Numbered from the stretch's first letter, positions 11,321 through 27,127 are shown. The stretch: DNA of 40,618 nt from Oscillospiraceae bacterium (GCA_015065205.1 SVQS01000002.1:1-40618); one strand, 5' to 3'. Notes: generated by a model from the letters alone, not told the origin. A program made the numbers and translations.

Positions 11321-12820
11321 ATGAAACTAATACTTGACGGAAACATCAATTCGTACTATATCCAAACGCTCTGCATGATTTTCTTCCCGGGGGAGAAATT
11401 CGGTGTTGCCGAGCAGCTTGATCCGAATAGTCCCGAGCTCTACATTCGCCTTTGTGAGCACGACGACGGTGTCGAGACCTATGCTCGCATTACTGTAAAC
11501 GGTAAGAGTGCATCCGCGGAGAAGTACTATACCTATTCTGCCGATTACGGCAAGGATAAAACGGTAAAGCTTGCTTGCGGTGCCGTTGTAATTGCCGTTT
11601 GCGGTGAAATTATGGGCTATCGACCTGCGTGGGGAATGCTCACAGGCGTTCGTCCTTCAAAGGTAGCAACCGAACTTTTGCAGGTGGGACTTAGTAAAAC
11701 ACGTGTAAAACGCATTCTTACGGGAGAGTATTTTGTTATTCCCAAAAAGGCTGCTCTCGCAACTGAGGTAGCTCTCAATGAGCAAAAGCTCATTGGAACA
11801 CCGTCTCCCAAGGATTGCAGCGTTTATATCTCTATTCCATTTTGTCCCACAAGATGTTCTTATTGTTCCTTTGTTTCTTATACCTCACCAAAGCTCCTTC
11901 AGCTCATCCCGGAGTATTTAGAGCATCTTCTCTTGGATATGGAGTACACCTTTAAAAAGATAAAAGAACTTGGACTGCGTATTGCCACCGTTTATATTGG
12001 CGGTGGAACACCTACCATTCTCACGGCAGATCAATTACGCGTTCTCCTCTCCAAAATTGCAGAATTGACCGATGTTTCCGCACTTGAAGAGTACACACTT
12101 GAGTCCGGTCGTCCCGATACCATTACGGCAGAGAAGATGGCTGTCGCAAAAGAATACGGGGTTACACGCGTTTGTGTCAATCCGCAGTCGATGAGTGATT
12201 CAGTACTGGAAAACATCGGTCGTTCACACACCGCAGAGGATTTCTTGCGTGCATACGATATCGCTAGAGACTCCGGTATTGCAAATATCAACACCGACCT
12301 AATTGTAGGACTTCCGGGGGATAATTTTAAGACCTTTTCATCAACTTTTGATAAAATTCTCTCGCTTCGTCCCGAGAACATTACCGTACATACCTTCTGC
12401 ATCAAAAAAGCGGCAGAAATTCTACGTCAAGGCAACAATGTTTATTCCTTGCGTGGTGGCGATGCCGGTAAGTGTGTAGATTATTCTCAATTAAAAGCAC
12501 AAGAGGAGAACTATCTGCCATACTATATGTACCGTCAGAAGAACACCGTTGGCAACCTTGAAAACGTAGGATTCTCGCTTGAGGGATGTGAGGGACGCTA
12601 CAATGTTTATATGATGGAAGAGGTACATCCCATTTTTGCCCTTGGCGCAGGTGCTGTCTCCAAAATGGTTGATTATCACCCCAAAAAGGGAGGGAAACCT
12701 GTAATCGAAAGACTTTTTTATCCAAAATATCCTTACGAATATTTGCGTGATGAAAGCACGCAGAATAAGTTATTGGCGATGGAAGAATTCTACACTCGCC
12801 GCGAACTTTTGGATGACTAA
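11321..12820 (+). CDS. hemZ: Radical SAM coproporphyrinogen-dehydrogenase-like protein (HemZ type)
   Basis: 499 aa. CxxxCxxC radical SAM motif CPTRCSYCSF. A long N-terminal extension typical of HemZ, and the relA-dtd-hemZ order common in Firmicutes. Confidence 0.75.
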   Translation: MKLILDGNINSYYIQTLCMIFFPGEKFGVAEQLDPNSPELYIRLCEHDDGVETYARITVNGKSASAEKYYTYSADYGKDKTVKLACGAVVIAVCGEIMGYRPAWGMLTGVRPSKVATELLQVGLSKTRVKRILTGEYFVIPKKAALATEVALNEQKLIGTPSPKDCSVYISIPFCPTRCSYCSFVSYTSPKLLQLIPEYLEHLLLDMEYTFKKIKELGLRIATVYIGGGTPTILTADQLRVLLSKIAELTDVSALEEYTLESGRPDTITAEKMAVAKEYGVTRVCVNPQSMSDSVLENIGRSHTAEDFLRAYDIARDSGIANINTDLIVGLPGDNFKTFSSTFDKILSLRPENITVHTFCIKKAAEILRQGNNVYSLRGGDAGKCVDYSQLKAQEENYLPYYMYRQKNTVGNLENVGFSLEGCEGRYNVYMMEEVHPIFALGAGAVSKMVDYHPKKGGKPVIERLFYPKYPYEYLRDESTQNKLLAMEEFYTRRELLDD

Positions 12821-18033: not shown

Positions 18034-19284
18034 TTATCTCTTGTTTAAAACATCTTTTTCGTAGTCTATTACAGAATTGAACCAACTCTCATCGCCAATA
18101 GTATTTGCACGTGCACAAAGCTCGTTCCAAACATCACCAACGGGGTAAAGCTTAAGTTCTTCTTGCAGCATCAAAAGTTCCGTAAAAGATTGGCTATCTT
18201 GCAGTTCTTTGAGACGGTCTTGCGGCATCAGAAGAGCCGTAAGAAGCGACTTTTGTACCGAGCGCATACCAATGACCCAAGCCGCAATGCGGTTGATAGA
18301 AGCATCAAAATAGTCGGTTGCCAAAATGACACGGTCGAGTGCATTGTTGCGTACGACCTCTTTCATCATTTCCTGCGTCTCATCGTCATATCTTACAACG
18401 TGGTCCGAATCCCAACGCACACCACGCGTAATATGAAGCGCGATTTTGGGATTGAAGCAGAGAAGGGCGGAAATCTTATCGGAAACAACTTCCGTAGGAT
18501 GATAATGTCCGTTGTCCATCAGGGGAACGATACCGCGCGTCATTGCATAAGAGAGGGCAAATTCGGCAGAGCCTGCTGTATAAGACTCCAAACCGATGCC
18601 AAACACCTTTGATTCGAGCGTTACATAAACAAGATTTTTATCGTAACCGCAACCAAGAATTTGGTCAAGAGAATCCATAAAGCGCATACGGGGGCCGAGA
18701 CGGTCAGCGGGAATATCTTTGAATCCATCCGGAATCCAAATGTTCATCAGGCAAGGGAAGCCTGTTTCGCGTGCAAAATATTCCGATATGCGAATACAGG
18801 CGATACCGTGACGAATCCAAAATGCGCGAATTTCTTCATTTGGGTTGGTAAGGGTTCCGTTTTCTGCCAAAGGATGGGAAAAATAGGTGGGATTGAAATC
18901 AAGGCCGATGCCGCGTTCCTTTGCAAAAGCAACCCATTTGGCAAAATGCTCTGGCTTAATGGCGTCACGGTCAGCAATTTTTCCGTCTTCATAAATGCCG
19001 TAGCAAGCATGAACGTTGACCTTATGCTTACCTGGGATGAGGGAGAAGGCCTTGTCGATATCCTGCATCAGCTCGTCGGGGGTATGTGCGGCTCCGGGGT
19101 AGTTACCCGTAGCTTGAATACCGCCGGTCAGCTCACCGGAGTTTTCAAAGCCTTTGACGTCATCGCCTTGCCAGCAGTGCATCGAGATGGGAATATTCAG
19201 CATTTTTTCAATTGCTGCTTCGGTATCAATGCCAATAGCGGCATATCTTTCTTTGGCTATTTGATAAAGTTCCTTTTGTGTCAT
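18034..19284 (-). CDS. rhaA: L-rhamnose isomerase
   Basis: 416 aa. SMHCWQGDDVKGFE and downstream blocks typical of RhaA. AAGGAG RBS. Confidence 0.9.
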   Translation of the reverse strand: MTQKELYQIAKERYAAIGIDTEAAIEKMLNIPISMHCWQGDDVKGFENSGELTGGIQATGNYPGAAHTPDELMQDIDKAFSLIPGKHKVNVHACYGIYEDGKIADRDAIKPEHFAKWVAFAKERGIGLDFNPTYFSHPLAENGTLTNPNEEIRAFWIRHGIACIRISEYFARETGFPCLMNIWIPDGFKDIPADRLGPRMRFMDSLDQILGCGYDKNLVYVTLESKVFGIGLESYTAGSAEFALSYAMTRGIVPLMDNGHYHPTEVVSDKISALLCFNPKIALHITRGVRWDSDHVVRYDDETQEMMKEVVRNNALDRVILATDYFDASINRIAAWVIGMRSVQKSLLTALLMPQDRLKELQDSQSFTELLMLQEELKLYPVGDVWNELCARANTIGDESWFNSVIDYEKDVLNKR

Positions 19285-19294
19285 AATTCACTCC

Positions 19295-20014
19295 TTATTT
19301 CAGTGCGGAATTGTTGAGTGTGCTCGCAGGGTCCTTTGCGCGTTCTTCTACTGTTTTATAACCGGGGTGCTTGCCGGGGAGGCCCATTTTAACGCGCAGA
19401 CCCATCAATTCGTACATTTTTTCTTTGGAGATTTCTTCAATTCTGCCAAGCTCCATAGCGTATTTCATGATCTTTGCGTTGAACTCGACTTCTTCCATTG
19501 TAAAGAAAGCACGGGTAAGCGTATTTCCAACGGTGAGAGCACCGTGATTTTTCAGCATAAATGCATCGTGCTCTTGAATGTAGGGCATCAGTGAGTCGGG
19601 AATTTCCATTGTGGAAGGAGTTGCGTATGCACAAGTGGGAACATCACCAATGGTAAGTACTGCTTCGGGAAGGATGTAGCGGTCAAGCGGAATACCTGCA
19701 ACGGTAAATGCGGTTGCAACAGGCGGGTGTGCGTGAACCACAGCATTTACATCGGGACGCTCGCGAAAAACACGAAGATGCATTTTTATCTCTGAGGAAG
19801 GATTGAGTGTTCCTTCGAGCTTATTTCCTTCTGCGTCGATCTTGATGATCATATCAGGCGTTAAAGAACCTTTGGAAACTCCGGTTGGAGTGCAATAAAA
19901 CTCGTTATCATTGAGTTTAACAGAAATATTGCCATCATTTGCGGCAACAAAGCCGTGGTTATAAAGGCGGTGGCCAACCTCGCAAATTTCTTGTTTGATT
20001 TGTTCTGCAGTCAT
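19295..20014 (-). CDS. Class II aldolase (rhamnulose-1-phosphate / fuculose-phosphate aldolase family)
   Basis: 239 aa from MTAEQIKQE (GGAGA RBS). Metal-binding VVHAHPP motif. Operonic with rhaA, so rhamnulose-1-P aldolase is the likely role (inference). Confidence 0.7.
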   Translation of the reverse strand: MTAEQIKQEICEVGHRLYNHGFVAANDGNISVKLNDNEFYCTPTGVSKGSLTPDMIIKIDAEGNKLEGTLNPSSEIKMHLRVFRERPDVNAVVHAHPPVATAFTVAGIPLDRYILPEAVLTIGDVPTCAYATPSTMEIPDSLMPYIQEHDAFMLKNHGALTVGNTLTRAFFTMEEVEFNAKIMKYAMELGRIEEISKEKMYELMGLRVKMGLPGKHPGYKTVEERAKDPASTLNNSALK

Positions 20015-20048
20015 AGTCGATCTCCTAAACTGAATATTTTCGCCTAAT

Positions 20049-20077
20049 ATTATACTACACTTTCTCCCAAAAGTCAA
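20049..20077 (-). promoter_or_regulatory. Near-consensus sigma-A promoter for the aldolase-rhaA operon
   Basis: On the minus strand: TTGACT (20077-20072), 17 nt spacer, TATAAT (20054-20049). Confidence 0.6.
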
Positions 20078-20149
20078 CACGATAGAGGACTAAAAAAACC
20101 GCAAATTGGGATTGGAAAAAGAAATGAATAAAACGCGAACGAATAAATA

Positions 20150-20260: not shown

Positions 20261-22360
20261 ATGAAAAAGAAACTGACACGCATTTTGGCAGCTCTCTTGA
20301 TTGCCATGATGCTCATTCCCACACTTGCAACCTTCGCAGTAAACGCTGAAGGCGAAACCGGAGAGACCGGAGAAACAGGCGAAACCGGTGAAACCGGAGA
20401 AACCACTGAGACAATTGATATTAGCGACATTGTGAATGTTTACGAGTTGAACAAACTGAATGCTGCTCCTAACACAGAGAAGGTGGCCGGTGCTAAAGAC
20501 AAAGAACCAACCGATGAAGAGGGAATGCTGGCAAGCAAACCATTTACGGTTACAGCTGACGGTGATAGATACATTTATGTCGGCCCCTGTGCCGATCCTG
20601 AAAAGTTTGGTTTGAACGACCTTATCATGTATTGGTACAAAAAGGACGGATCCTACTATGGTGCTAAAGGTATTTACGAATTGAAGGGTGACGTAGCAGA
20701 TGGTGGTAACGTTGTCGACAGATTTGAGGATGGATCGGTCATTTTGAGAATTAAAGTAAATCAAAAATCCTACCAAAAATTTGCTGCTATTAAAGTTCCC
20801 ACCACATATGCTGATTTTATGCTTATAAGCGTTGAGCGCGCCTTTACGGTTGAAGAGTACTATGCATATGCGGATGCACAAGGCTGGGAACTTGGCGGTA
20901 CAGCTTTGCGTCCTCTCGATCCGGTTGTTGAAGACGAAGCGCCCGAAGACTATGAAGGCCTTTGGAATTTCTTCCCGCTTGAAGAAGATTTTGTAGCCCC
21001 CTCCACCCAAAAAGAAGCCACCAATAGGTATAAGATTTCAAAATACATTCCTGTAACTGAGGGTGATATTGTTAGAATTGGTGCAGTTAGTACAAAAGAA
21101 ACACATCACATTATTTACGCCTACAGTGATGAAAAGATTCCCGGCGAAAACACTGAGGGACCTGTTGTTTACGAATACAAAGAAACCCAAAAGTATAAAA
21201 AGGGTGACTATGGTGTGGATTTTGTAGAAAACATTGGCTATGATTGTGCTATTCATTCCTACACCGTTCCAGAGGGTGTTTCCTTTATCAAAGTTGTAGC
21301 TCCCGAAAGCCTTTACGGAAGCGGGGATATTTTAGTAACCAAAAACCAGCCCTTTAATGCTACATCACTTCGTACTGCCCTTGATATTCCCGAGCTTTCT
21401 GCACAAGCAAAAGCACACGATTTCTATGGCAAAACAGCACTCTTTGTAGGTGACTCCATACTTTACGGTGAATATGATACTCCCAATTCCTTCCGTAGTC
21501 CTTATACATCCTTTGCAAGACGTTTTGCTCTTGCTACCGGTTTGATTCCTACCGTTTATTCCGCTAACGGTGCAACCATTGGTAAGGTAGTTGGCAAACC
21601 CAACATTAAGCAAACATCCGACCTCATAAGAACTCTTTCCGCTAAAAAACAGTATGATATGGTTATTTTCCAAGGCGGCATCAACGATGCACGTCAAGGT
21701 CTCGCTGTTGGTGAAATTCTCTCCGTAGATACCGCGCGCGAGATTTTGGCTGAACCTGAACGTTTAGAAACCTTTGCAGGTGGCTTGCAATTGATGTTCT
21801 ACGATGCACTCAACAAATGGACAGAGGCAGAGTTCTACTATATTGCAGACTACAAAGTAACATCTGATGCTGTGAATGGTAAAGACATGAGTACATACTA
21901 TGCACAAGCTAAAGCTCTTTGCGAAATCTACGGTATTCACTACATCGACCTTTACGGTGATACAGCACTCTATACAAGCTTCGACTATAATAACGCCGAA
22001 CTCTTTGCTGACGATAAGTTCACGCCCTTAGCATCTACTTATGATTTGTTGTTCCCGACACTCCTTAGTCTGTTTGATAAATCTTTGAGCGAAGAGTTGA
22101 CCAATCCTTTTGCCGGTACTGATGAACTTGCGCCTCCTCCTGTTGCCGAACCCGAGGGCCTTGATATTGGCATCATTATTGCCATTGTTGCGGCAGGTGT
22201 AGTTGTTCTTGCCGGTGGCGGTTTTGCGCTGTACTGGTTTGTAATCAGAAAGAAAAAGGTAGCAAAACCTGCTAATGTCGAAGCGGAAGCTCCTGCTTCT
22301 GAACCCGAAGCAACAACTACCGAAGAATCCACTTCCGATGAAGTTAAAAAAGACGAATAA
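20261..22360 (+). CDS. Secreted multidomain protein, paralog 1: signal peptide, (GET)6 repeat, two unassigned N-terminal modules, SGNH/GDSL-hydrolase-like domain (His of DxxH replaced by Thr), C-terminal TM anchor and acidic tail
   Basis: Signal peptide ending AVNA/EG. SGNH blocks ALFVGDSILYG, ANGATIGK, FQGGINDA. Block V reads DDKFTP (no His). TM helix IGIIIAIVAAGVVVLAGGGFALYWFVI then RKKK (22166-22258). Clear paralogy with the next two genes. Confidence 0.8.
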   Translation: MKKKLTRILAALLIAMMLIPTLATFAVNAEGETGETGETGETGETGETTETIDISDIVNVYELNKLNAAPNTEKVAGAKDKEPTDEEGMLASKPFTVTADGDRYIYVGPCADPEKFGLNDLIMYWYKKDGSYYGAKGIYELKGDVADGGNVVDRFEDGSVILRIKVNQKSYQKFAAIKVPTTYADFMLISVERAFTVEEYYAYADAQGWELGGTALRPLDPVVEDEAPEDYEGLWNFFPLEEDFVAPSTQKEATNRYKISKYIPVTEGDIVRIGAVSTKETHHIIYAYSDEKIPGENTEGPVVYEYKETQKYKKGDYGVDFVENIGYDCAIHSYTVPEGVSFIKVVAPESLYGSGDILVTKNQPFNATSLRTALDIPELSAQAKAHDFYGKTALFVGDSILYGEYDTPNSFRSPYTSFARRFALATGLIPTVYSANGATIGKVVGKPNIKQTSDLIRTLSAKKQYDMVIFQGGINDARQGLAVGEILSVDTAREILAEPERLETFAGGLQLMFYDALNKWTEAEFYYIADYKVTSDAVNGKDMSTYYAQAKALCEIYGIHYIDLYGDTALYTSFDYNNAELFADDKFTPLASTYDLLFPTLLSLFDKSLSEELTNPFAGTDELAPPPVAEPEGLDIGIIIAIVAAGVVVLAGGGFALYWFVIRKKKVAKPANVEAEAPASEPEATTTEESTSDEVKKDE
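20351..20413 (+). repeat. In-frame 9-bp tandem repeat encoding six GET triplets followed by TET
   Basis: ggcgaaacc ggagagacc ggagaaaca ggcgaaacc ggtgaaacc ggagaaacc actgagaca. Imperfect at synonymous positions. Confidence 0.9.
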
Positions 22361-22472: not shown

Positions 22473-22547
22473 TGCATTTTGTTCAAAAAAAGTTGTTGAA
22501 AATTGGTAAAAATGCATCTTTAAAAAAATATGCTAAAGTGTTATAAT
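22473..22547 (+). promoter_or_regulatory. Promoter plus conserved upstream element of paralogs 2-3
   Basis: TTTAAA (22519-22524), 17 nt spacer, TGTTATAAT (-10 at 22542-22547). ATTGGTAAAAATGCATCTTTAAAA (22502-22525) is identical to 20179-20202. TGCAT at 22473 and 22513 (40 bp apart). Confidence 0.5.
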
Positions 22548-22584: not shown

Positions 22585-24669
22585 ATGAAGAAAAAACTGG
22601 CACGCCTGCTGGCTGTTATATTGATTGCTATGATGCTCATTCCCACACTTGCAACTCTTGCAGTAACCGCTGATGAGGGGGCTAACGAAACAATTAACAT
22701 TGACGATATTAAAAATGCTTATACGTTAAGAGCCCTTGACGCCGCCCCCAGCGTGGAAACAAAAGACGGCGAACCAACTTATGAAAAAGGAATGCTGGCA
22801 AGCGATCCCTTTGCGGTTACAAGAGATGGTGATAAATACATTTACGTAGGTCCTTGTCCCGAACCTACAGATGCCAATTACAACAACCTTGTTCTGTATT
22901 GGTACAAAAAGAACGGTGATTACTATGGAGCTAAGAAAATGGGGGAATTACAAGGCGACGTAGCCGATGGCGGTAACATTGTTGATAGATTCCCGGATGG
23001 TTCTGTTATTTTGAGAATTAAGATCTCCAATGCAACCAACCATAAGTTTGCAGCCATCAAAGTTCCCACAACTTTTGCCGATTATATGCTCGTAACCGTT
23101 GAACGGTCCTTCACAAAGGATGATTATTATGCTTATGCCGATGCCCAAGGTTGGGATATCGAAAGCGTAGGTCTTCGCCCCGCAATGGCTGATGAAGCCC
23201 CCGATGACTATGAAGGTCTTTGGAATCTCTTCCCCCGCTTGACCGACCGTGATCCGTTGCTCCGTCAACACCAAAACACTACCTACGTTGACTCCGAGTT
23301 CATTCCCGTTGTCGAAGGTGATGTTATTACGATGGGTGCAATCGATATGAATGCCAATAAAGACATCCTGATTACATACGATGCTAAATTGACCAAGGTA
23401 AAAAGCTACCGGCATACCAATATAAGTTTTGAGCTCGAAGAAGAACTTGAATATGACTTTGGAATCTATTCCTTTATCGTTCCGGAAGGTATTTCTTACA
23501 TCAAAGCATCCGTTCACAGTGGTATCTATAATGATGGAGATATTCTGGTAACCAGAAACCAACCCTTTACAGGTTCAGAACTTCGTGAAGCACTCGAAAT
23601 CGCTGAGCTTTCTGAAGAAGCAAAGACACACGCTTTTTACGGTAAAGAAGCACTCTTTGTGGGTGACTCTATCAGTTATGGTTCTTACGATACACCTCCC
23701 ACGTATCGCAATCCCTCTGCATCTTGGGCAAGACGCTTGGCGCTGACCACTGGTCTTATTCCTACCAATGTTTCTTATCCCGGCGCAAGCGTTGGTAAAA
23801 CCGGCTTGAGCAATGTTAAGTGGGAATATGACCTCTTGAAGTCGGAGCTCGCTTCCGCGAAGAGTTATGATATGATAGTTTTCCACGGTGGCGTTAATGA
23901 TGCACGTCAAAATGTATCTGTTGGCACAGCACTTCCGTCCGACACTGACCGCAAGGTTTTGGTTGAAGAGAACCGTTTGGCTACCTTTGCAGGTGGTTTG
24001 CAGTTGATGTTCCATGACGCTAAAGAAAAGTGGCCTGAGGCTGAATTCTACTTTGTTGCAAACTTTAAGCTGGTTTCCGACAGCGTAAGGGGCAAGGATA
24101 TGAGCGAATACTTTGCTCAAGCAAAGATTCTTTGCGCCGAATACGGTGTTCACTACATCGACCTCTACAACGATGTTGCGCTTTATGAGACCTTTGATTA
24201 TGAGAGTAACGAGTTCCTTCCCGACTTGATTCACCCCGTAAGCACTGCCTACGATATCCTGTTCCCAACAATCCTCCGTTTGTTTAACGAAACTCTTGAG
24301 AACAAGGACGATCCGGTCATTCCTGATACTCCCGAGGTAACTACTCCAGAGGAGACCACTCCTGAGGAAACTCCCCCCGAAGAGACAACTCCAGAGGTAA
24401 CTACTCCTGAAGATACCACTCCCGAAGAAACTACTCCAGAGGAGACCACTCCTGAGGAAACTATCCCGGAAGAAACTACTCCTGAGGAAACTACGACTCC
24501 CGAGGAATCTGCCACTCCGGACACAGATAAAACCCCTGAAGAAGAGGAGCACGTTTGCAAAGAAGTAAGCGGATGGAAAGCTTTTTGGAATAGCATTATG
24601 AATTTCTTCCGCAGATTGTTCGGTCAACCCGAGCTTTGCAAGTGCGGCGAAACTATTATGAAAAAGTAA
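22585..24669 (+). CDS. Secreted multidomain protein, paralog 2: signal peptide, two unassigned N-terminal modules, SGNH/GDSL hydrolase with complete Ser/Gly/Asn/Asp-His blocks, (TPEET)n linker, conserved Cys-flanked amphipathic C-terminal tail
   Basis: Start at MKKKLARLL with the RBS GAAAGGGG shared with paralog 1; the ORF-track start 22546 lies in the -10 box. ALFVGDSISYG, YPGASVGK, FHGGVNDA, PDLIHP (His550 at 24232-24234). Tail CKEVSGWKAFWNSIMNFFRRLFGQPELCKCGETIMKK. Confidence 0.8.
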   Translation: MKKKLARLLAVILIAMMLIPTLATLAVTADEGANETINIDDIKNAYTLRALDAAPSVETKDGEPTYEKGMLASDPFAVTRDGDKYIYVGPCPEPTDANYNNLVLYWYKKNGDYYGAKKMGELQGDVADGGNIVDRFPDGSVILRIKISNATNHKFAAIKVPTTFADYMLVTVERSFTKDDYYAYADAQGWDIESVGLRPAMADEAPDDYEGLWNLFPRLTDRDPLLRQHQNTTYVDSEFIPVVEGDVITMGAIDMNANKDILITYDAKLTKVKSYRHTNISFELEEELEYDFGIYSFIVPEGISYIKASVHSGIYNDGDILVTRNQPFTGSELREALEIAELSEEAKTHAFYGKEALFVGDSISYGSYDTPPTYRNPSASWARRLALTTGLIPTNVSYPGASVGKTGLSNVKWEYDLLKSELASAKSYDMIVFHGGVNDARQNVSVGTALPSDTDRKVLVEENRLATFAGGLQLMFHDAKEKWPEAEFYFVANFKLVSDSVRGKDMSEYFAQAKILCAEYGVHYIDLYNDVALYETFDYESNEFLPDLIHPVSTAYDILFPTILRLFNETLENKDDPVIPDTPEVTTPEETTPEETPPEETTPEVTTPEDTTPEETTPEETTPEETIPEETTPEETTTPEESATPDTDKTPEEEEHVCKEVSGWKAFWNSIMNFFRRLFGQPELCKCGETIMKK
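24322..24549 (+). repeat. In-frame Thr/Pro/Glu-rich pentapeptide repeat linker (TPEET-like units)
   Basis: PDTPEVTTPEETTPEETPPEETTPEVTTPEDTTPEETTPEETTPEETIPEETTPEETTTPEE... Contains a perfect 34-nt direct repeat (24339-24372 and 24429-24462). Confidence 0.9.
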
Positions 24670-24712
24670 TTTTTGGTACACTATATATGATATTTAAGAA
24701 AGGGGATTTCTT

Positions 24713-26725
24713 ATGAGAAAAAATCTTACCCGTGTCCTGTCAGCTTTGCTGATTGCTATGATGCTCATTCCCGCGTTCGCTTCTCTGGCCGTTAGCGCAG
24801 AAGAGGGAACAGGCTCAACAATCGACATCAGTGACATTGAAAATCTCTACAAACTGAAAAAACTTGACGCTGCTCCCAGTATGGAAAAAGTAGCCGGTGC
24901 CAAAGATGGTGAACCTACCGAAGAAAATGGAATGTTGGCAAGCGAATCTTTTGCTGTTACAAGAACTGGTGATAACTATATTTACGTTGGTCCTTGTCCT
25001 GACCCTCGTATTGAAGCGAATTGGAAGGCGCTTGATTTTATCGTTTATTGGTATAACAAAGACGGTAAATACACCGCTCAAAAAAAATTTATGGAGTTAG
25101 GCAATCCTGATTCAAGTGGTACATCCTATCCTAATATCGTTGACGAATTCCCGGATGGATCTGTTATTCTGAAAATTAAAAGCAGTTCCACTTATAAATT
25201 TGCAGCCTTGAAGCTCCCCACAACTTACTCTAATTGTATTCTTGCAACCTCCGAACGTCCTTTTACAGTGGAAGAGTACTATGCATACGCAGATAAAGAA
25301 GGTTGGCCGATTGACGGTACACTGCGCCCCATCCCTCCCGCAACAGCAGATCCGGCTCCCGAAGGTTATGAGGGACTTTGGAATCTCTTCCCGAGATCGG
25401 GTGAATACGATGCAACGCTCACACAACAAAATGCTGTTAATGAGTACCAATTGTCCAAATATATCCCCGTAAGTGAGGGCGACGTCATCACTATGGGTGC
25501 TATCAAATCCAAAGAGACAAGAAGTATTCTGTACACTTACAGTGATGAATTGTTGATTTCTGATTATAGAGAAATCAGACAGTATCAGAGAACCGATTTT
25601 GGTATCAATTTGGTGGAAAACCTTGGAGAGGATTTTGCAATCTATTCATTTGAAATCCCTCAAGGTGTATCGTATGTAAGAGTTCGCACTCGCCTTGGTG
25701 TTTACAATAACGGTGATACTTTTGTTACCAAAAATCAACCTTTTACCGGTGCAGAAATGCGCGCAGCTCTTGCTATCCCCGAGCTTTCCGAGGAAGCAAA
25801 GGCACATCCTTTTTACGGTAAAAAGGCACTCTTTGTAGGTGATTCTATCAGCTACGGTTCGTACGATACACCTTTGGCATATAGTATTCCTTCCACATCC
25901 TTTGCAAGACGTCTTGCTCTTGCTACCGGTCTTATTCCTACCAACATTTCTTACCCGGGAGTAACTGTTGGAAAAACCAAATCGGGCAACGCAGTAACCG
26001 AATACGATTTGTTAAAGACAGTACTTATCACCAAAAAGAGCTACGATATAATCGTTTTCCAAGGTGGCATCAATGATGCTCTTAAAAACGTTCCGGTTGG
26101 CGAAGCACTTGCAGCCGATACTGACCGCAAGGTTTTGCTCGAGAATGATCGTTTGGCTACTTTTGCAGGCGGCTTACAATTGATGTTCCACGATGCAAAA
26201 ATCAAGTGGCAGAATGCTGAACTTTATTACATTGCCAACTACAAGGTAACTGACGCTGCTACAAACGGCAAGGGTATGGCTGAGTATTATGCACAGGCAA
26301 AAGCACTCTGTGAAGCATACGGCGTTCATTACATTGATCTTTACAATGATACTGAACTTTACAAAACATTTGACTATACAAACGCTGAACTCTTTGCAGA
26401 AGATCTCTTTACCCCCACAAGTGCGGCATATGATCTTTTGTTCCCAACGGTTTTACGTTTGTTTAATGAAACGCTCAAGAGCAGTGAAGTTGTCGTTGAG
26501 CAAACCGCTTCCGCAGAGGCCGCCCCCATTCAAACTGCTCCCGTAAAGATGTCCGCAAAGCAACCCGTAGTTGCTGAAGCAAATGGTAATACCGATGAAG
26601 CAAATAATTGCCAAGAAGTTAGCGGTTGGAAAACGTTTTGGAATTCCATTGCAAATTTCTTCCGCAGATTATTCGGCCAATGTGAAATTTGTGTTTGCGG
26701 CGAAGCAATTACAAAAGTAAAATAA
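24713..26725 (+). CDS. Secreted multidomain protein, paralog 3: same architecture, SGNH-like domain with His replaced by Thr, non-repetitive linker, conserved Cys-flanked amphipathic C-terminal tail
   Basis: Only 43 bp after paralog 2 with no terminator, so probably co-transcribed. ALFVGDSISYG, YPGVTVGK, FQGGINDA. Block V reads EDLFTP (Thr at 26411-26413). Tail CQEVSGWKTFWNSIANFFRRLFGQCEICVCGEAITKVK. Confidence 0.8.
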   Translation: MRKNLTRVLSALLIAMMLIPAFASLAVSAEEGTGSTIDISDIENLYKLKKLDAAPSMEKVAGAKDGEPTEENGMLASESFAVTRTGDNYIYVGPCPDPRIEANWKALDFIVYWYNKDGKYTAQKKFMELGNPDSSGTSYPNIVDEFPDGSVILKIKSSSTYKFAALKLPTTYSNCILATSERPFTVEEYYAYADKEGWPIDGTLRPIPPATADPAPEGYEGLWNLFPRSGEYDATLTQQNAVNEYQLSKYIPVSEGDVITMGAIKSKETRSILYTYSDELLISDYREIRQYQRTDFGINLVENLGEDFAIYSFEIPQGVSYVRVRTRLGVYNNGDTFVTKNQPFTGAEMRAALAIPELSEEAKAHPFYGKKALFVGDSISYGSYDTPLAYSIPSTSFARRLALATGLIPTNISYPGVTVGKTKSGNAVTEYDLLKTVLITKKSYDIIVFQGGINDALKNVPVGEALAADTDRKVLLENDRLATFAGGLQLMFHDAKIKWQNAELYYIANYKVTDAATNGKGMAEYYAQAKALCEAYGVHYIDLYNDTELYKTFDYTNAELFAEDLFTPTSAAYDLLFPTVLRLFNETLKSSEVVVEQTASAEAAPIQTAPVKMSAKQPVVAEANGNTDEANNCQEVSGWKTFWNSIANFFRRLFGQCEICVCGEAITKVK

Positions 26726-26740
26726 AGCATAACAATTATA

Positions 26741-26780
26741 AAGAACGGCAAAGCCAAGGTTTTGCCGTTCTTTATTTTTG
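26741..26780 (+). terminator. Rho-independent terminator after paralog 3
   Basis: AAGAACGGCAAA-gccaagg-TTTTGCCGTTCTT then TATTTTT. Confidence 0.85.
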
Positions 26781-26807
26781 AATTAAGAAGGGGAAGTAGT
26801 TAACTAT

Positions 26808-26854
26808 GCTTGCAGAGTGGGTTCGGCGTGCGGGTGCCAATGCAAAAGGTCTGC
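26808..26854 (+). repeat. 47-bp tRNA-Arg-derived minihelix-like element, copy A
   Basis: GCTTGCAGAGTGGGTTCGGCGTGCGGGTGCCAATGCAAAAGGTCTGC. 46/47 identical to copy B, 178 bp downstream. Confidence 0.9.
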
Positions 26855-26985
26855 TAAAAAGCAAATCTTGCTTTTGTCATTATAACGGGAATTTCACCTA
26901 CGGTGAATATATCCTCGTCCTGTGCCTGACAAGCAAGCTTGTCGATCTTCGGACGGGATATGCGAACCCAATTCTGCTGCGCTAC

Positions 26986-27032
26986 GCTTGCAAAGTGGGT
27001 TCGGCGTGCGGGTGCCAATGCAAAAGGTCTGC
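26986..27032 (+). repeat. 47-bp tRNA-Arg-derived minihelix-like element, copy B (also the left arm of the palindrome with the tRNA 3' half)
   Basis: GCTTGCAAAGTGGGTTCGGCGTGCGGGTGCCAATGCAAAAGGTCTGC. It contains GGGTTCG, TGCGGGT-G-CCA and the trailer ATGCAA..GGTCTGC of the adjacent tRNA, but in the opposite orientation. Confidence 0.9.
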
Positions 27033-27052: not shown

Positions 27053-27127
27053 TGGCACCCGCAACGGGAATCGAACCCATAACTACCCCTTAGGAGGGGG
27101 CTATTATATCCATTTAACTATGCAGGC
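27053..27127 (-). tRNA. tRNA-Arg (anticodon CCT), CCA encoded
   Basis: Hand-folded cloverleaf of GCCTGCATAGTTAAATGGATATAATAGCCCCCTCCTAAGGGGTAGTTATGGGTTCGATTCCCGTTGCGGGTGCCA. 7-bp acceptor stem, 4-bp D stem, anticodon stem GCCCC/GGGGT with loop CTCCTAA, T arm ATGGG-TTCGATT-CCCGT, discriminator G. Confidence 0.85.

Follow-up and report, generated by a model that had tools for sequence, protein, structure and literature searches.

The 40,618-nt stretch of Oscillospiraceae DNA analysed here (GCA_015065205.1 SVQS01000002.1:1-40618; the window) encodes three tandem, secreted SGNH esterase-like paralogs (P1, P2 and P3; Table 1), two of which, P2 and P3, end in a Cys-flanked aromatic tail. Profile searches showed this tail to be a self-contained terminal module of ~40 residues, independent and widespread, that is carried by hundreds of secreted proteins. 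The comparisons described below establish that it is modular and terminal, that its ligands are conserved and their loss is compensated, that its helix is amphipathic and that it alternates with transmembrane (TM) anchors. We propose that the tail is a metal-clasped, amphipathic, in-plane membrane anchor that holds secreted enzymes at the cell surface, a proposal to which we give an even chance of being right.

The original prediction, made from the sequence alone, held that P2 and P3 share a conserved C-terminal tail in place of the TM helix, RKKK cluster and acidic stretch that end P1. When translated, 24556-24669 and 26609-26725 give exactly the two quoted tails, with a stop codon after each, and P1 ends as described (TM helix at 22166-22246). 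The module of P2 begins earlier than first described, two codons 5' of the first Cys (C1), at a His (24550); the prediction missed this conserved upstream His and a compensating ligand swap in P3. The linkers in front of the two tails (84 aa of TPEET repeats in P2, 42 Ala/Val/Gln-rich aa in P3) cannot be aligned and are unrelated, as had been claimed. The tails are identical at 29 of 37 positions (78%; tail DNA, 77%), compared with 61% for the bodies, and the window contains no further tails beyond these two.

Over 35 codons, the DNA of the P2 and P3 tails differs at 7 synonymous and 8 non-synonymous codons, because of which we read the pair as an old duplication under purifying selection and not as a recent copy. 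The idea that the resemblance arose by chance, or as a recent duplication or gene-conversion artefact of the two window genes, has their adjacency as its only point. It is refuted, with practically no probability left to it, by hundreds of independent occurrences (E down to 1.8e-24), by the 7 synonymous differences between the window copies and by the presence of the same sequence in independent faecal metagenomes. Independent faecal and gut metagenomes also yielded the region as such, and their unitigs across the P2 tail are identical.

Full-length P3 as a query retrieved 118 homologues, every one from a metagenome or a metagenome-assembled genome (MAG). For the tail itself, a profile of 45 positions built from 24 tails (A1) was used to search 1.84 billion representative proteins. 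An alignment of 88 diverse tails (A3) proved too diverse for deriving a pattern, for which the narrower A1 was suitable. A1 matched 110 clusters (50% identity) at E<=1e-3, 26 of them at E<=1e-10, with a best E-value of 1.8e-24. The match ends no more than 5 residues from the C-terminus in 94 of 109, and another 12 have a short extension. Seven entries (P0164, P0173, P0174, P0195, P0204, P0213 and P0225) have a tail prolonged by ~13-20 residues past C-x-C-G by a second short, charged amphipathic segment (...CVCGDKVLEEDYTEFKKIFKENRK).

The carriers range from fragments up to 2306 aa, and a signal-peptide-like N-terminus was recognised by a simple heuristic in 159 of 168 full-length carriers. Their Pfam domains include BspA-type LRR, Endonuclease I, F5/8 type C, GH95, alpha-L-rhamnosidase, CBM26/35, Lipase_3, transglutaminase-like, GLUG and BNR with F5/8 type C (sialidase-like); SGNH esterases are also among these unrelated secreted passengers. 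All the tails are from uncultured Clostridia of gut or rumen, which are strict anaerobes. When one genome per species was scanned, 28 loci were obtained, in 19 of which the tail-bearing open reading frame (ORF) was located, all in uncultured Eubacteriales, Oscillospiraceae, Acutalibacteraceae or 'Clostridia' MAGs of faecal, sheep or roe-deer origin. The tail had been claimed to be an independent module, and it is found on many unrelated passengers, with three different ones in a single genome: MAG JAZSFM01 carries it on an Endonuclease I, a BNR/F5-8C sialidase-like protein and an SGNH protein, and MAG JAZOMJ01 on SGNH and Endonuclease I carriers. SLH, dockerin, LPXTG and CWB2 elements are absent from the listed carrier Pfam families and from 13 carriers scanned individually (seven clusters and six MAG loci). 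When the neighbours of the 19 tail loci were clustered, they shared only the synteny of orthologous loci, with no common partner or enzyme. A word-index search with the tail alone (44 aa) gave no match, which reflects the limits of the index and not absence; a single-protein scan of genome contigs found no relatives, and tblastn of the tail matched nothing in phage and plasmid collections.

Two further kinds of element were met in these searches. Repeated Cys modules of the form ...ALGH...PKTC.xCG.TEGEKLP... often lie directly upstream of the tail (e.g. P0141, P0152, P0175 and P0121) and are another unannotated Cys-containing element of the same proteins, presumably extracellular. Lookalikes that have the helix alone and no Cys (L019, L024, L026-L028, P0211), from Cytophagaceae, Myxococcales and Actinomycetes, were left out of the family. 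The lookalike in P0211, WWSRFWKSIVNFFRRLFGMSEL, is very similar to the helix, but it is internal (residues 359-381) and devoid of Cys and His, and may be convergent or unrelated (compare L019 and L024, from Cytophagaceae MAGs).

The consensus of the 88 diverse tails is E-x-(D/N)-H-x-x-C-x(4-7)-[FW]-W-N-A-I-x-N-F-F-R-x-L-F-G-x-P-E-x-C-x-C-G-E-x(1-5). A His-x(1-2)-Cys pair is followed by 4-6 residues, a 17-residue amphipathic aromatic/basic helix, exactly four residues, Cys-x-Cys-Gly and 1-9 residues to the end. C1, the first Cys of C-x-C and the Gly are invariant; the His, N, F, F, helix-ending G and second Cys of C-x-C are at least 90% conserved, and N-F-F-R-x-L-F-G at the helix end is near-invariant. 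The three bracketing Cys of the prediction (C1, C28 and C30) are accordingly invariant or nearly so in the 88 diverse tails. Among 142 non-redundant tails, the His lies at -2 or -3 of C1 in 127, the conserved Asn stands 14-16 residues away from C1, and exactly four Cys/His are present in 113. The gap between the helix-ending Gly and C-x-C is 4 residues in all 137 tails with a locatable C1. KKK-type ends occur in SGNH and Endonuclease I subgroups; most other tails stop 1-4 residues past C-x-C-G with no basic cluster.

Ten tails, that of P3 included, have C1 but no upstream His, and each of the ten has an extra Cys or His. The P3 tail and its closest relative in the search (P0001) have Asn in place of the His and Cys in place of the post-helix Pro (GQCEICVCG), which keeps four ligands; P0003 has one further Cys beyond this pattern. 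The extra Cys of P3 at 26681 compensates for the lost His. Because ligand loss is repeatedly compensated, we infer a four-coordinate metal site, most simply for Zn2+. The tail has the four conserved Cys/His, the fixed spacing and the compensated loss expected of a structural Zn(Cys/His)4 site. Ligand-rich divergent variants (P0212, P0221-P0227; L021-L023) have the pattern C-x-C-x-C-H ... C-x-C-G-x-x-H or H-x-C-H ... C-x-C-G-x-A-H-Y/W and could hold a second metal site.

The core of the tail had been described as an aromatic/basic amphipathic helix, and both structure prediction and hydrophobic moments bear this out. AlphaFold2 (AF2) models of the isolated tail and of full-length P3 alike contain one helix (G-W-K-...-R-L(-F)) and a small beta-bridge around C-x-C-G. 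The predicted local distance difference test score (pLDDT) is 72 for the isolated tail and ~80 for the helix within full-length P3, where a linker of pLDDT 25-42 separates it from the body. The hydrophobic moment over 18 residues (muH) is 0.63 for P2 and 0.66 for P3 at a mean hydrophobicity (<H>) of ~0.1, with a family mean muH of 0.67; only 1.35% (P2) and 0.35% (P3) of shuffled sequences reach the observed values. The TM helix of P1, for comparison, has a muH of 0.21 and an <H> of 0.55. By Wimley-White interfacial free energy, no other 18-residue segment of the mature protein scores as favourably as the helix (-5.55 kcal/mol in P2, -5.18 kcal/mol in P3), which is on par with the P1 TM helix (-5.65 kcal/mol), whereas the maximum Kyte-Doolittle 19-residue mean (KD19) is 0.28 and 0.72 for the two tails and 2.6 for the P1 TM helix. 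By these scores the tail helix is predicted to seek the interface and to be far too polar to span the membrane. The tail has what an in-plane anchor of the PBP5 type calls for: a terminal helix of ~18 residues, with high muH, low mean hydrophobicity and favourable interfacial free energy.

The same helix could instead serve self-association or regulation, as a Phe/Trp-zipper oligomer or by folding back on the passenger, with no role in localisation. Its hydrophobic residues fall at helix positions 3, 6, 7, 10, 13, 14 and 17, a heptad-like a/d/e arrangement. The unrelated passengers and long disordered linkers nevertheless weigh against an intramolecular role, and the alternation with TM anchors in two families would be left unexplained; we consider this explanation very improbable.

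Comparison of relatives established that, in two unrelated enzyme families, the tail alternates with a TM membrane anchor and is in this respect its equivalent. Among the 118 SGNH homologues, 44 end in the tail and 64 in a TM helix, most of the latter followed by a KKK cluster; the prediction that the tail takes the place of a classical TM anchor thus extends to relatives outside the window. A neighbour-joining tree of the SGNH catalytic region requires at least 14 switches between tail and TM helix (mean for randomised states, 32). The median linker from the end of the catalytic domain to the anchor is 51 aa before a tail (n=39) and 48 aa before a TM helix (n=46), and linkers of both kinds are E/T/P-rich. 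Alternation recurs in the Endonuclease I family, which is unrelated: of the 120 best homologues of P0125, 76 match the strict tail regular expression, at least 10 more have visible tail variants and ~17-19 end in a TM helix and KKK. A few Endonuclease I relatives (P0282, P0303, P0316, P0319 and P0321) end in amphipathic helices with neither Cys nor His, such as KKGFFARIWDGIVNFFKNLFGKKKN, which suggests that the tail-bearing bacteria may have a wider class of C-terminal helix anchors.

The author of the prediction recognised no named sorting signal in the tail, and neither do the curated collections. Pfam-A 2025 and NCBIfam 20.0 (including its CTERM models) gave no match to the window tails at E<=1, even as homologs proved plentiful beyond the window's two genes. 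The best match of NCBIfam to the 88 diverse tails was to an unrelated bacteriocin-like peptide (E-value 0.0015), with nothing significant; weak matches to SpoVM, PSM-epsilon and bacteriocin-like peptides (E 0.0015-0.02) were dismissed as compositional amphipathic-helix noise. Among the 52 Pfam families matched by 45 full-length carriers, the 25 most frequent, which are those listed, leave the tail uncovered. A Foldseek search of the PDB with a 47-residue tail model gave 0 matches, and the best E-value of the tail profile against PDB sequences was 1.2, which is noise. The literal motif strings are absent from the searchable literature, keyword searches of which returned only general reviews, work on PBP5 and the Haft CTERM preprint. 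The sources give carriers generic names such as 'endonuclease' or 'glycoside hydrolase N-terminal domain-containing protein'. The tail family and its architecture of a helix plus His/Cys3 thus appear to be undescribed so far, although C-terminal surface-retention modules as such are already known.

These searches bear on the possibility that the tail is a processed sorting signal, recognised by a dedicated housekeeping enzyme that might cleave or modify it at a Cys, much as LPXTG is handled by sortase or the Cys-containing MYXO-CTERM, CGP-CTERM and Synerg-CTERM signals by CPBP-type proteases. The extreme C-terminal position on signal-peptide proteins, several unrelated carriers per genome, an invariant Cys and a low-complexity linker would fit, and are hallmarks of small C-terminal sorting domains (bioRxiv 10.1101/2023.06.07.544157). 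However, the tail lacks the tripartite architecture that defines such signals: it has no hydrophobic TM segment (KD19 0.28/0.72), and a terminal basic cluster, present in the SGNH and Endonuclease I subgroups, does not appear to be kept across the family at large, many tails stopping 1-4 residues past C-x-C-G. The final 20 residues, which are what sorting enzymes remove, are the most conserved. None of the curated CTERM models matches, and no sorting-enzyme gene was found next to the tail-bearing genes in their local neighbourhoods. A radical-SAM gene of the window (11321-12820), considered as a Cys-modifying enzyme, was ruled out, being syntenic in a genome whose single SGNH copy is TM-anchored. 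We therefore regard a sorting signal as improbable. The prediction had left open an in-plane membrane anchor, a metal or disulfide knot and a recognition tag; we favour the first two combined over the third.

How a metal-clasped anchor would work can be outlined as follows. The four His/Cys ligands would bind one metal ion, most likely Zn2+, and metal binding would fold the flanks of the module back onto the helix. The clasped helix would lie at the cytoplasmic membrane, in the interface of the outer leaflet, its Trp/Phe face sunk into the lipid and its Arg/Lys residues resting on anionic head groups. The enzyme would then be tethered beneath the wall, with the disordered, acidic Pro/Thr/Glu linker as a spacer, and such tethering would be the job done by the TM helix and KKK anchor in P1 and many relatives. 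Metal binding, membrane or lipid association and surface retention are all three what we infer from the features of the tail.

Several points weigh against this mechanism. The H-x(1-2)-C and C-x-C spacings differ from the canonical C-x2-C of zinc knuckles, and the PDB searches by sequence and fold found no similar zinc fold. The P3 module, with four Cys and no His, could form two disulfides instead. The isolated-tail model is moderately confident (pLDDT 72; predicted template modelling score, pTM, 0.47). Some of the Cys-less Endonuclease I helices are acidic (e.g. SFMDVIMNLIETIMNAINNLIESISGMFS), which is unusual for binding to anionic membranes. The near-invariance of N, F, F and G across genera exceeds the usual need of a purely lipid-binding helix and would also fit a specific protein partner or packing of a mini-fold; if the hydrophobic face is packed on the metal-binding flanks, less of it is left for lipid. 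Finally, distant SGNH relatives carry dockerins at the position of the tail, so that the slot can hold a protein-docking module; PF00404 was found only in the distant relatives P0110-P0112 and P0115, and paralogs 1-3 and the tails gave no PF00404 match.

The last points lead to the main rival, a docking module, in which the metal-folded tail plugs the enzyme onto a surface receptor or wall polymer in the manner of dockerin and cohesin, with no lipid binding. Such a module would account for the strict conservation of N-F-F-R-x-L-F-G, C-x-C-G and the spacings over many genera and passengers. The passengers are carbohydrate-active enzymes and adhesin-like proteins typical of clostridial docking systems, the fold appears to be metal-dependent, as in dockerin, and the distant SGNH relatives P0110-P0115 have dockerins at the same C-terminal slot. 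However, no candidate receptor was found, the 19 tail loci sharing only the synteny of orthologous loci. The closest alternation partner of the tail is a TM anchor and not a dockerin, linker lengths equal those of the TM-anchored paralogs, Cys-less amphipathic helices fill the same slot, and the interfacial free energy of the helix is very favourable. Docking is in our judgement unlikely, though it deserves to be taken seriously.

If the metal-clasped anchor is correct, a bolder extension follows as a tentative and rather doubtful idea: a so far undescribed Gram-positive display mode, in which an extracellular Zn(His/Cys3)-stapled amphipathic helix would anchor dozens of enzymes per cell with no sortase, TM segment or wall-binding domain. 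Because the ligands would be thiolates outside the cell, the anchor would need both anoxia and ample zinc to work. Exposure to oxygen, or sequestration of zinc by the host, could then release or inactivate the surface enzyme set of strict gut anaerobes.

Whether a gut bacterium keeps or shares its glycan-degrading enzymes, nucleases and adhesins depends on surface display. In the large uncultured clostridial part of gut and rumen microbiomes, many large secreted proteins cannot be given a predicted location from the known Gram-positive anchors (sortase/LPXTG, SLH, CWB2, dockerin, lipobox). The tail marks a coherent, recognisable set of these (esterases, GH95 fucosidases, rhamnosidases, a sialidase-like protein, Endonuclease I, BspA-LRR) and is usable as a hidden Markov model for annotation. 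A metal-clasped anchor, if true, would be a new class of bacterial anchoring mechanism and a compact 40-residue display tag for anaerobes, and it would suggest a link between retention of surface enzymes and redox or zinc status.

Each of the three window paralogs consists of a signal peptide, a beta-rich N-terminal region and an SGNH/GDSL domain (PF13472), followed by its linker and anchor (Table 1). The start of P2 was set at 22585, in agreement with the paralogs and with database entry P0021; the mechanical ORF begins at 22546. AF2 modelled the P3 body confidently, and Foldseek groups it with carbohydrate esterases of the SGNH type, CE2 and acetyl-xylan esterases among them. A (GET)n repeat, GETGETGETGETGETGETTET, stands right behind the P1 signal peptide (20348-20400, P1 residues 30-47) and is absent from P2 and P3.

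Table 1. Features of the SGNH paralog array, with positions counted from the first nucleotide of the window
Feature	Position	Strand	Basis or remark
P1, secreted SGNH esterase-like protein, 699 aa, TM-anchor C-terminus	20261..22360	+	ORF; PF13472 match
P1 TM helix IGIIIAIVAAGVVVLAGGGFALYWFVI	22166-22246	+	KD19 2.6, muH 0.21
P1 RKKK stop-transfer cluster, which with the TM helix is the alternative to the tail; acidic end follows	22247-22258	+	
P2, secreted SGNH esterase-like protein, 694 aa from paralog-matched start	22585..24669	+	Identical to database entry P0021
P2 linker, 84 aa, acidic TPEET-type repeats	24298..24549	+	Family linkers E/T/P-rich
P2 tail module HVCKEVSGWKAFWNSIMNFFRRLFGQPELCKCGETIMKK	24550..24666	+	
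P2 candidate ligands	His 24550, Cys 24556, Cys 24637, Cys 24643	+	
P2 amphipathic helix GWKAFWNSIMNFFRRLF	24571..24621	+	AF2 helix; muH 0.63; Wimley-White interfacial dG -5.55 kcal/mol
P3, secreted SGNH esterase-like protein, 670 aa	24713..26725	+	
P3 linker, unique, 42 aa, Ala/Val/Gln-rich, predicted disordered	26477..26602	+	pLDDT 25-42 across residues 592-636
P3 tail module NNCQEVSGWKTFWNSIANFFRRLFGQCEICVCGEAITKVK; Asn in place of His, fourth Cys gained	26603..26722	+	
P3 amphipathic helix GWKTFWNSIANFFRRLF	26624..26674	+	AF2 helix 638-654, pLDDT ~80; muH 0.66; Wimley-White dG -5.18
P3 C-terminal ligand cluster CEICVCG, extra Cys at 26681	26681..26701	+	
Terminator-like hairpin, 17-bp stem, directly 3' of P3	26738..26775	+	
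Promoter-like site TTTAAA-17-TG-TATAAT 5' of P1	20196..20224	+	Consensus match only
Identical promoter-like site, extended -10, 5' of P2	22519-22547	+	Consensus match only

The stop codon of P2 and the start of P3 are separated by 43 bp (24670-24712), in which a scan found no promoter-like site, and P2 and P3 may for this reason be co-transcribed, ending at the hairpin at 26738-26775. A syntenic locus (L001, 10001-11920; MAG GCA_052833805.1) has one SGNH copy, TM-anchored, between an aldolase/RhaA pair and a helix-turn-helix (HTH) gene. The flanks common to the window and GCA_052833805.1 comprise radical SAM, amidohydrolase, MurJ-like, YabP/YabQ, SmpB, RhaA and aldolase genes and, on the other side, the HTH gene. 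Because that locus holds a single TM-anchored copy, we read the three SGNH genes of the window as a local tandem expansion that has sampled both anchor types. In several metagenomes, contigs join homologous positions of different paralogs and skip ~2.7-4.5 kb (20437->24920, 20474->24967, 21354->25787 and 23136->25838), which could reflect strain-level variation in copy number through inter-paralog recombination, or assembler collapse.

Genes for L-rhamnose isomerase (RhaA) and a class II aldolase (18034-20080, - strand) lie directly upstream of P1 and are divergent from it, and rhamnosidases make up several of the other tail carriers; a possible role of the SGNH enzymes is the deacetylation of glycans that contain rhamnose, for example rhamnogalacturonan. 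The paralog array is closely followed by a tRNA gene (27056-27127, - strand; Rfam 57.6 bits), adjoined by a ~10-fold rise in metagenome depth across 26786-27000.

Among known systems, the sortase signal LPXTG and the MYXO-CTERM, CGP-CTERM, Synerg-CTERM and JDVT-CTERM types resemble the tail in being carried by many unrelated secreted proteins per genome, at the very C-terminal end and behind a low-complexity linker, and the Cys-containing CTERM types also have an invariant Cys. Terminal position on signal-peptide proteins and several unrelated carriers per genome are properties that the tail has in common with tripartite sorting signals. The tail differs from them in having no hydrophobic TM segment and, as it appears, no terminal Arg/Lys cluster conserved across the family, in being conserved to the very end, and in having neither a matching NCBIfam CTERM model nor a known cognate enzyme. 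Dockerin (PF00404) is likewise a short, probably metal-dependent C-terminal module of clostridial carbohydrate-active enzymes, and fills the same slot in distant SGNH relatives. However, it has ~70 aa, duplicated Ca2+-binding loops and a cohesin partner, whereas the tail has ~40 aa, one helix and a putative His/Cys3 site, with no sequence similarity to dockerin and no partner found. Zinc knuckles and ribbons share with the tail four Cys/His ligands in two pairs around a short secondary-structure element, with His and Cys interchangeable. The pairs of the tail are H-x1-2-C and C-x-C rather than C-x2-C, a long amphipathic helix lies between them, the module is extracellular, and no PDB relative of the tail was found by sequence or fold.

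For the proposed anchor, the C-terminal amphipathic helix of PBP5 is the nearest functional precedent. In E. coli, the C-terminal amphipathic helix of PBP5 holds the protein on the periplasmic face of the membrane (PMC2909392). The anchors of PBP5 and PBP6 differ from the tail in having no His/Cys ligands, conserved motif or modular spread, and belong to a Gram-negative periplasm. What they share with the tail, as proposed here, is a Sec-exported enzyme kept on the outer side of the cytoplasmic membrane by an amphipathic helix of ~18 residues at its end, one too polar to cross the bilayer and functionally interchangeable with a TM anchor.

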